Assembly (NCBI RefSeq): GCF_003334255.1
Contig: NZ_QOWU01000008.1
DNA: 64,000 nt
Direction: 5' to 3' (one strand)
From: Escherichia coli
GTDB lineage: Bacteria > Pseudomonadota > Gammaproteobacteria > Enterobacterales > Enterobacteriaceae
In this document: positions 5,641-7,377 of the stretch, piece by piece
Layout: each line of letters starts with the position of its first letter
Numbering within the stretch: the first letter of the stretch is position 1
Notes under the pieces: model-generated
The model's database searches: none
Told to the model about the DNA's origin: nothing
What the model saw: only the letters and a program-made list of their open reading frames with translations
Position numbers and translations under genes: made by a program

Positions 5641-7377
5641 ATGCCGCGTGGCCTGGAATTATTGATTGCTCAAACCATTTTGCAAGGCTTCGATGCTCAG
5701 TATGGTCGATTCCTCGAAGTGACCTCCGGTGCGCAGCAGCGTTTCGAACAGGCCGACTGGCATGCTGTCCAGCAGGCGATGAAAAACCGTATCCATCTTT
5801 ACGATCATCACGTTGGTCTGGTCGTGGAGCAACTGCGCTGCATTACTAACGGCCAAAGTACGGACGCGGCATTTTTACTACGTGTTAAAGAGCATTACAC
5901 CCGGCTGTTGCCGGATTACCCGCGCTTCGAGATTGCGGAGAGCTTTTTTAACTCCGTGTACTGTCGGTTATTTGACCACCGCTCGCTTACTCCCGAGCGG
6001 CTTTTTATCTTTAGCTCTCAGCCAGAGCGCCGCTTTCGTACCATTCCCCGCCCGCTGGCGAAAGACTTTCACCCCGATCACGGCTGGGAATCTCTACTGA
6101 TGCGCGTTATCAGCGACCTACCGCTGCGCCTGCGCTGGCAGAATAAAAGCCGTGACATCCATTACATTATTCGCCATCTGACGGAAACGCTGGGGACAGA
6201 CAACCTCGCGGAAAGTCATTTACAGGTGGCGAACGAACTGTTTTACCGCAATAAAGCCGCCTGGCTGGTAGGCAAACTGATCACACCTTCCGGCACATTG
6301 CCATTTTTGCTGCCGATCCACCAGACGGACGACGGCGAGTTATTTATTGATACCTGCCTGACGACGACCGCCGAAGCGAGCATTGTTTTTGGCTTTGCGC
6401 GTTCTTATTTTATGGTTTATGCGCCGCTGCCCGCAGCGCTGGTCGAGTGGCTACGGGAAATTCTGCCAGGTAAAACCACCGCTGAATTGTATATGGCTAT
6501 CGGCTGCCAGAAGCACGCCAAAACCGAAAGCTACCGCGAATATCTCGTTTATCTACAGGGCTGTAATGAGCAGTTCATTGAAGCGCCGGGTATTCGTGGA
6601 ATGGTGATGTTGGTGTTTACGCTGCCGGGCTTTGATCGGGTATTCAAAGTCATCAAAGACAGGTTCGCGCCGCAGAAAGAGATGTCTGCCGCTCACGTTC
6701 GTGCCTGCTATCAACTGGTGAAAGAGCACGATCGCGTGGGCCGAATGGCGGACACCCAGGAGTTTGAAAACTTTGTGCTGGAGAAGCGGCATATTTCCCC
6801 GGCATTAATGGAATTACTGCTTCAGGAAGCAGCGGAAAAAATCACCGATCTCGGCGAACAAATTGTGATTCGCCATCTTTATATTGAGCGGCGGATGGTG
6901 CCGCTCAATATCTGGCTGGAACAAGTGGAAGGTCAGCAGTTGCGCGACGCCATTGAAGAATACGGTAACGCTATTCGCCAGCTTGCCGCTGCTAACATTT
7001 TCCCTGGCGACATGCTGTTTAAAAACTTCGGTGTCACCCGTCACGGGCGTGTGGTTTTTTATGATTACGATGAAATTTGCTACATGACGGAAGTGAATTT
7101 CCGCGACATCCCGCCGCCGCGCTATCCGGAAGACGAACTTGCCAGCGAACCGTGGTACAGCGTCTCGCCGGGCGATGTTTTCCCGGAAGAGTTTCGCCAC
7201 TGGCTATGCGCCGACCCGCGTATTGGTCCGCTGTTTGAAGAGATGCACGCCGACCTGTTCCGCGCTGATTACTGGCGCGCACTACAAAACCGCATACGTG
7301 AAGGGCATGTGGAAGATGTTTATGCGTATCGGCGCAGGCAAAGATTTAGCGTACGGTATGGGGAGATGCTTTTTTGA
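5641..7377 (+). CDS. aceK: Isocitrate dehydrogenase kinase/phosphatase
   Basis: 578 aa ORF starting [27 protein letters not shown], recognised as AceK. Confidence 0.95.

Follow-up and report, generated by a model that had tools for sequence, protein, structure and literature searches.

What does it mean that a core gene of Escherichia coli and a gene of foreign appearance end inside one another? The question is raised by the aceK-arpA locus, which we analyzed in a 64,000-nucleotide stretch of E. coli DNA (contig NZ_QOWU01000008.1, assembly GCF_003334255.1; the whole stretch is called the window below). The six-frame list of open reading frames (ORFs) places the coding sequence (CDS) of aceK, encoding isocitrate dehydrogenase kinase/phosphatase (578 aa), at 5641..7377 on the plus strand with its TGA at 7375-7377, and that of arpA (728 aa) at 7346..9532 on the minus strand, its TAA being the reverse complement of tta at 7346-7348. 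The two CDSs overlap by 32 bp on opposite strands at 7346..7377 and share their 3'-terminal nucleotides as a convergent, tail-to-tail protein-coding pair in which both ORFs appear to be real genes. An earlier reading made from the sequence alone had called attention to this overlap, and it was confirmed by the ORF list and by RefSeq, where the Prokaryotic Genome Annotation Pipeline (PGAP) annotates both CDSs with the identical 32-bp overlap in K-12 and other strains (loci L003, L004, L085, and L086). The overlap is already known, being present in the reference annotation, in the published excludome and as the target of a phylotyping primer. We consider it probable that it is a passive scar of one old insertion of a foreign effector-like gene at the end of aceK, harmless and not a regulatory device.

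The overlap is composed of two parts. The first, 7346..7357, covers codons F569-R572 and the first base of codon 573 and is homologous to the aceK of genomes that have no arpA; its antisense strand supplies the last three arpA codons (T V R) and the TAA, which is the complement of the TTT-AGC (Phe569-Ser570) junction. The second, 7358..7377, has no counterpart in arpA-less genomes; its sense strand supplies most of the aceK replacement tail YGEMLF and the TGA, and its antisense strand the arpA codons ...K K A S P H. These 12 and 20 bp make up the 32-bp overlap, and each gene ends in the antisense of its partner. The conserved core of aceK, as judged from 80 outgroup loci, ends at R572 (7354-7356), and the tail Y573-F578 with the stop occupies 7357-7377. 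A T6/A6 homopolymer lies within the overlap at 7370-7375. Of the ArpA variants of 545 aa, in which a frameshift near 7370-7375 extends arpA about 21 codons further into aceK antisense and lengthens the overlap, the one checked (L087) was rejected as a probable homopolymer sequencing error, because aceK in its assembly is split into three ORFs. In MG1655 the equivalent coordinates are 4218596-4220332 for aceK and 4220301-4222487 for arpA, the window position being the MG1655 position minus 4212955, as calibrated on a Term-seq 3' end from the literature.

The junctions were located by base-level alignment with Nissle, Z247, E. albertii, E. whittamii, and Escherichia sp. MOD1. In the arpA-less strains Nissle and Z247, aceK encodes 574 aa and ends ...SVRFV*, with the convergent iclR stop 16 bp later. 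The aceK end codons are CAA AGA TTT AGC GTA CGG TAT GGG GAG ATG CTT TTT TGA in K-12 and CAG CGG TTT AGC GTC CGA TTC GTA TAA in Nissle. K-12 and the arpA-less strains are identical up to 7340 and have the QRFSVR codons in common up to 7357, the last clearly homologous base, after which they diverge fully; similarity returns at 9842 (GAAAAAGTCAGCG), 7 bp before the stop of iclR (9849..10673, minus strand), the ancestral convergent neighbor of aceK. Between these points lies an AT-rich inserted segment of about 2.48 kb (7358..9841), which holds arpA as its single ORF together with the 309-bp arpA upstream region and has a GC content of 0.32-0.43 vs. 0.51-0.59 in the flanks. Its left edge is uncertain, from about 7341 to 7368, and its right edge falls at about 9841/9842. 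The segment does not look like a mobile island, as neither flanking direct nor inverted repeats were found around 7358-9841 and it contains no tRNA or mobility gene. Its gene has the features of a horizontally acquired, xenogeneically silenced gene, namely atypical GC content, absence from sister taxa and, according to the literature, binding by H-NS.

The region, aceBAK-arpA-iclR-metH, was matched by 5426/5426 complete E. coli genomes, with K-12 strains at 99.9-100%. Junction-spanning queries found the K-12 junction in 4106 of the 5426 (75.7%; 3929 matching records at ≥99% identity) and the arpA-less junction in 1301 (24.0%), and about 19 genomes matched neither type. Outside the species, arpA was absent from 80/80 outgroup loci of the other Enterobacterales and Escherichia lineages sampled, and E. 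albertii, E. whittamii, and Escherichia sp. MOD1-EC7003 carry the ...SVRFV* ending and the 15-16 bp spacer found in B2-type E. coli. Because none of the 80 outgroup loci has arpA and three Escherichia lineages share both the SVRFV* ending and this spacer, we infer that the arpA-less arrangement is ancestral and that arpA is an insertion. In the pig isolate PM7 (NZ_CP073996.1), an IS1A insertion lies in the equivalent of 6900-7900, and the match comes in two pieces spanning 1.8 kb.

The proteins encoded on either side of the junction tolerate variation at their ends. Across outgroups the AceK core ends ...QRF[SC][VIQL]R[YF], and what follows is a tail of 1 to >20 residues that is unrelated between genera (after R572, FV, YNQAG, YGNLQQAG, or ...RRPDKA... 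derived from a repetitive extragenic palindromic (REP) element). An arpA allele locus 88% identical to that of K-12 (L085) has three substitutions in the compared junction stretch, all of them in the new part of the overlap, and they alter both tails, YGEMLF to YGEIFY and KKASPHTVR to NKKSPHTVR. The chains of PDB 3LC6/3EPS are the identical 578-aa AceK including the island-derived tail, and one chain (4P69) ends at residue 571. The new AceK tail was probably tolerated because AceK beyond R572 is hypervariable and seemingly unconstrained, and the arpA tail is variable as well. The length of the overlap is not above chance, because, when ORFs were extended in simulation from random positions of these sequences to the next in-frame stop, the median was 105 bp and the probability of an overlap of ≥32 bp was 0.92. 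A random 3'-extension model of convergent overlaps has been described (Kingsford, Delcher and Salzberg, 2007, as presented in PMC3887535), and in the form given there it agrees with the aceK/arpA case in that both ORFs at the junction lost or lacked a stop of their own and continue into the partner until a stop appears in frame, and in that the overlap length is within the expected distribution, at its short end. It differs in that the present event can be reconstructed base by base, with the pre-insertion state kept in 24% of E. coli and in sister species.

The junction of aceK with iclR in other Enterobacterales is similarly tight. Among 78 outgroup loci having both genes, aceK overlaps the convergent iclR in 14, by 4 bp (YTAR) in 12 and by 47 bp in 2, and 15-16 bp spacers are found in Escherichia; these junctions also leave aceK no space for a terminator. 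A closely packed convergent 3' end would be the ancestral condition of aceK. The difference in K-12 is that the partner has been exchanged, with iclR pushed 2.5 kb away and a foreign gene in its place.

ArpA is predicted from its domain content to be a type III effector-like protein of the ShET2/EspL family with weak ankyrin-repeat matches. Residues 121-379 match Pfam Toxin_15 (PF07906, ShET2 enterotoxin N-terminal region) with an E-value of 2.9e-96, the ankyrin matches in Pfam are weak (Ank_2 at E 0.037 and above), and an NCBIfam search gave no hit at E ≤ 1e-5; the PGAP/RefSeq name of the product is espL4, type III secretion system effector EspL4. The gene is apparently real and under weak constraint, because omega against the 88%-identical allele locus is 0.49 for arpA vs. 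0.05 for aceK and 0 for iclR, with 99 nonsynonymous differences observed in arpA vs. about 194 expected under neutrality. That allele is an intact ORF of 734 aa. Two major alleles exist, one of 728 aa, whose cluster counts 11,592 sequences, and one of 524 aa with 4,354 sequences, which lacks 204 residues between two repeated ankyrin-like segments (window ~7780-8400; L004 3447-5021), and the 3' end and the overlap are unchanged in both. All ArpA relatives above 74% identity are encoded at the aceK-arpA locus and have both the ...SPHTVR end and the 32-bp overlap in common. An exhaustive search found 740 relatives outside the locus, all at ≤39% identity; their similarity to ArpA stops around residue 640-660. 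The native C-terminus of ArpA could not be read from homologs, as a word-indexed search returned same-locus proteins only and the distant relatives stop short of the tail.

Considering the above results, we propose a plausible model for the origin of the overlap. In the ancestral Escherichia arrangement, aceK would have ended ...Q R F S V R F V stop, followed by a 15-16 bp spacer and the stop of the convergent gene iclR. A foreign, AT-rich segment of about 2.5 kb carrying a ShET2/EspL-type arpA would then have replaced about 17 bp in the ancestor from which most E. coli lineages descend, with the left breakpoint just past R572, the last conserved AceK residue. aceK would have lost its last two codons and stop and gained six island codons (Y G E M L F) up to the first in-frame stop (7357-7377), and arpA would leave the island for three codons (T V R), enter the antisense of aceK codons 569-572 and stop at the TAA at 7346-7348. 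This would be an ordinary "extend to next stop" origin of a convergent overlap, kept since both tails are little constrained. At the transcript level, the few aceBAK transcripts that pass 6008 would run about 70-100 nt into arpA antisense before Rho stops them, and arpA itself would be silenced by H-NS.

Does the absence of a boundary between the two genes have consequences for transcription? The sequence-only reading had held that there is no room for a terminator between them, and this stands, as the locus offers no intergenic space, no terminator-like site and no unusual structure. Our scan found no plus-strand intrinsic-terminator-like site from the aceK stop (7377) to iclR (9849) and no terminator-like site on either strand at or near 7346-7377 that could serve as a bidirectional terminator. 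The overlap carries only a weak 5-bp GCTTT/AAAGC stem, its RNA folding energies are like those of shuffles (z +0.8, -1.0, and +1.3), and an Rfam scan found REP/naRNA4 copies upstream of aceK only and nothing at the overlap.

For the internal terminator, the Rho region, H-NS binding and the silence of arpA, we rely on the literature. Published data indicate that most aceBAK transcription ends prematurely at an intrinsic terminator within aceK, which we located at 5979..6008 on the plus strand (hairpin 5979-6000; a 7-bp stem with 6 G-C pairs, then CTTTTTAT). The U-tract of the scanned hairpin coincides to the base with a Term-seq 3' end at MG1655 4218963 (window 6008; intrinsic-terminator score 5.9), which is the end of the AceK-int small RNA (Adams et al., 2021; PMC7815308). 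Expression of aceK is reported to be far below that of aceA (PMC5435950). The aceA-aceK spacer carries naRNA4 copies of the REP type or bacterial interspersed mosaic element (BIME) type at 5386-5463 and 5484-5561 (full) and at 5582-5619 (partial), with Rfam scores of 85.6, 81.8, and 39.2 bits. This REP spacer is classically tied to the drop in aceK expression. Downstream of aceK, a Rho termination region on the plus strand, antisense to arpA, peaks at 7444, 67 nt past the aceK stop (MG1655 4220399; Rho score 3.0, p 2.1e-8, bicyclomycin-sensitive; PMC7815308, Supplementary file 2); it was derived from DirectRNA-seq with and without bicyclomycin, at low read counts and a coarse resolution (800-nt windows). 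Over the 67-123 nt downstream of the aceK stop, the C/G ratio lies at 1.25-1.32. By these published data, the aceK transcript is subject to Rho-dependent termination.

On the other strand, little speaks for a transcript. The Term-seq tables hold no minus-strand 3' end for arpA and none antisense to aceK (PMC7815308), and arpA was described as "not expressed at all" in BL21(DE3), a strain of the B lineage, in which arpA is disrupted. A promoter island in the 5' part of arpA, predicted to be foreign by two methods and bound by H-NS in all compiled chromatin immunoprecipitation (ChIP) studies (PMC3661553, Table 1), lies at approximately 8986..9375 on the minus strand, in the lowest-GC stretch; its coordinates were converted from U00096.2 with a +1977 shift. 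A genomic peak for the RpoS holoenzyme, obtained by systematic evolution of ligands by exponential enrichment (SELEX), was reported at 4220334 in old coordinates, about 9356 in the window (PMC5493296). The promoter island and the RpoS peak are both located where the arpA CDS is richest in AT, in its 5' part, and neither lies in the arpA upstream region.

The sequence-only reading had also claimed that each transcript must enter the partner gene and that this might couple the glyoxylate shunt to arpA. The first claim holds for aceK into arpA, where the Rho region at 7444 and ExcludonFinder, which lists aceK-arpA among 165 convergent excludons of MG1655 (PMC12288877), both place transcript; on the arpA side no minus-strand 3' ends are mapped. 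The excludome listing is nearly automatic once overlapping CDSs have read coverage, because the aceK and arpA CDSs themselves overlap. The claimed coupling fares worse. A functional regulatory link between the glyoxylate shunt and arpA is unlikely because the read-through flux is small, Rho stops the transcripts within about 100 nt and arpA appears silent; early termination within aceK and the lineage-specific, scar-like nature of the overlap also speak against it. An untranscribed arpA had been named in advance as evidence against the idea, and the published data come close to that state, under laboratory conditions only and partly in a strain with a disrupted arpA.

Several other explanations of the overlap have to be weighed against a passive scar. 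If the pair were a functional excludon, aceBAK read-through would repress arpA, or arpA transcription, by collision or by RNase III cutting the duplex, would lower aceK mRNA, and control of the shunt would be tied to an effector-like gene. No terminator separates the genes, aceK transcripts do reach arpA (the Rho region at +67), the pair is in the MG1655 excludome, and mscL/arfA shows that tail-to-tail pairs can be regulatory in E. coli; however, the pairing is recent and lineage-specific, with 24% of E. coli and every other sampled genus lacking it, the 3' end of aceK receives little transcription, which Rho quickly removes, and arpA is H-NS-bound, with no transcripts or 3' ends detected and a product that has no evident functional relation to AceK. 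We regard such a function as improbable. Still less probable is a merely nominal overlap, in which arpA would be a decaying pseudogene or a mis-annotated ORF. Its omega is ten times that of aceK, no expression was detected, alleles with the large internal deletion (524 aa) exist, and B strains have it disrupted. K-12 is also not known to have a functional virulence type III secretion system. Against decay stand the Toxin_15 match (E 3e-96), the intact 728-aa ORF that represents the cluster of 11,592 sequences, the intact 734-aa ORF at 88% identity, and an omega clearly below 1 with about half of the expected nonsynonymous differences. The reverse history, in which arpA was ancestral and was lost by deletion from B2/F-type E. 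coli and the other Escherichia species, so that the FV* tail is the scar, could appeal to the presence of arpA in three quarters of E. coli genomes and to the frequency of deletions in bacteria. It is scarcely credible, because independent deletions would not recreate the one identical junction, ...SVRFV* with its 15-16 bp spacer, shared by three Escherichia lineages and B2-type E. coli; the 80/80 outgroup loci without arpA and the AT-rich, H-NS-bound composition that marks arpA as foreign point the same way.

The strongest competitor, which we hold to be unlikely although clearly ahead of those just discussed, is that the overlap already existed in the donor. Together with the island, ~37 nt from the 3' end of a foreign aceK richer in AT would have entered at a breakpoint near 7340/7341, so that the whole K-12 aceK tail would be donor aceK and the last ten arpA codons would be read from donor-aceK antisense. 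This would account for CAA AGA at Q567-R568 in K-12, where B2 E. coli and 67/67 outgroup loci with the motif located use CAG/CAA CGN. AGA is used nowhere else, and the three synonymous changes lie within 4 nt after 60 identical nucleotides upstream. Y573-G574-E575 also fits the commonest non-Escherichia pattern after R572, [YF]-G-x (YGN, YGT, YGE, FGE, and others), where Escherichia has FV*, and the GC content falls from about 7341 onward. However, blastn-short searches with the tail against the 80 outgroup loci gave matches at chance level only, and over 27 nt no outgroup exceeds Escherichia itself in agreement with K-12 (20/27 vs. 19/27). ArpA relatives outside the locus reach ≤39% identity, there is neither a donor signature at the iclR side nor a mobility signature, and the YGE match is of three residues only and was noticed post hoc. 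In the search for such a donor, the segments 7330-7460 and 7355-7400 and the right junction were compared by blastn-short with the 80 outgroup loci and gave chance-level matches only, and codon-by-codon comparison found no outgroup nearer to the K-12 tail than Escherichia. A divergent donor tract in the flanks was rejected too: sliding-window identity over 3.3 kb left and 2.6 kb right of the junction, for K-12 against B2 strains and three Escherichia species, showed a mosaic of 2-5% divergence with no gradient toward the junction. The sole dip in identity, at 6842-7141, is specific to Nissle (86-91% to K-12, vs. 97-99% for Z247) and looks like a strain-specific recombination patch in aceK.

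A passive scar with extension in situ thus remains our preferred reading, and some of the evidence weighs against it. arpA is probably expressed somewhere, because its ORF is intact in thousands of genomes and its omega of 0.49 is below 1; the expression evidence comes from laboratory media and in part from an arpA-disrupted strain. Some transcript overlap is in fact observed, as the aceK-arpA pair is listed as a convergent excludon in 50% or more of the 58 MG1655 transcriptomes (PMC12288877). The exact left breakpoint is uncertain, and the three synonymous K-12 differences (CAA AGA vs. CAG CGG) lie just left of it. With CAA AGA seen in no outgroup and a K-12 tail that starts Y-G-E like many non-Escherichia AceK proteins, these residues would fit an imported donor aceK tail better than extension in situ. 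Finally, the analysis yielded neither a donor nor a target-site duplication nor a mobility gene.

Comparison with known systems helps to place the locus. The mscL/arfA pair (PMC10070815) is likewise tail-to-tail, with a transcript complementary to the 3' CDS of the partner, and stands in the same excludome table; in contrast to aceK/arpA, its antisense regulation was shown experimentally and its co-localization is enriched across Enterobacteriaceae, whereas the aceK/arpA pairing is confined to part of one species. From excludons in general (PMC12288877), among which aceK-arpA is listed as convergent, it differs in that arpA appears silent and transcription at the aceK 3' end is weak. The same junction is used in the Clermont quadruplex PCR (Clermont et al., 2013), whose primer AceK.f (6967..6986, plus strand) and primer ArpA1.r (7347..7366, minus strand, wholly inside the overlap) give the 400-bp "arpA" amplicon. 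Presence or absence of this amplicon reflects the insertion polymorphism, B2 strains being arpA-negative; in the marker literature found, it serves as a presence/absence signal only, and neither the gene overlap nor the altered AceK tail is discussed. Within the ArpA1.r site, only the 3' half is constrained by two coding sequences.

The overlap as originally stated matters little, as it is annotated, catalogued as a transcript overlap and targeted by a standard phylogrouping PCR. Its value lies in being a base-resolved case of a foreign gene at a core-gene 3' end producing a mutual overlap, with the pre-insertion state kept within one species. It also means that E. coli has two natural AceK C-termini, 574 aa ending ...RFV and 578 aa ending ...RYGEMLF, and that the solved structures carry the island-derived one.

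One testable idea has wider reach, namely read-through of aceBAK into iclR, the repressor gene of the operon. In arpA-less lineages such read-through would have to enter iclR as antisense, because Rho needs >50 nt of untranslated RNA and the two stops are separated by 16 bp or share 4 bp. The insertion might then have rewired a feedback, with the arpA island and its Rho site acting as an insulator; we put this forward as a doubtful possibility. If it were true, arpA-less lineages (B2/F-type E. coli, E. albertii, and many Enterobacterales) would have a cis positive feedback on induction of the shunt, a silent 2.5-kb island would uncouple aceBAK from iclR in 76% of E. coli, and induction dynamics would differ by phylogroup.

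The surroundings of the aceK and iclR 3' ends provided some further observations. In the island-derived DNA, an 8-bp G+C-rich hairpin, GGGCAGA(A)...(C)TCTGCCC, lies at 9817-9838, 11-32 nt beyond the iclR stop, with no U-tract on either strand and an energy that is not significant vs. shuffles. Because this hairpin is in island-derived DNA, the 3' flank of iclR would also have been replaced by the insertion. In 11 outgroup loci checked (L052, L055, L057-L060, L063, and others), the aceK and iclR stops overlap by 4 bp (TTAA, TTAG, or CTAG), and most of these overlaps sit in a G+C-rich palindrome, e.g., GGCGGG TTAA CGCCCGCC, a hairpin to which the final codons of each gene contribute and which has no U-tract. 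In several genomes of Citrobacter and Pseudocitrobacter (L011, L012, L015, and L018), the AceK tail runs through a REP element (...ETDRRPDKA...), a further route of tail remodeling. The aceK-iclR interval of other genera carries unrelated cargo (L022, L032, L067, L070, L072, L073, L078, and L082), including a CdsA-like protein with an acyltransferase in Trabulsiella, Enterobacter sp., Pantoea, and Erwinia, an RHS core fragment in Winslowiella, CynR in Erwinia persicina, and Edd with a 424-aa hydrophobic ORF in Serratia. From this gene content, the aceK-iclR site seems to be a recurrent insertion point.

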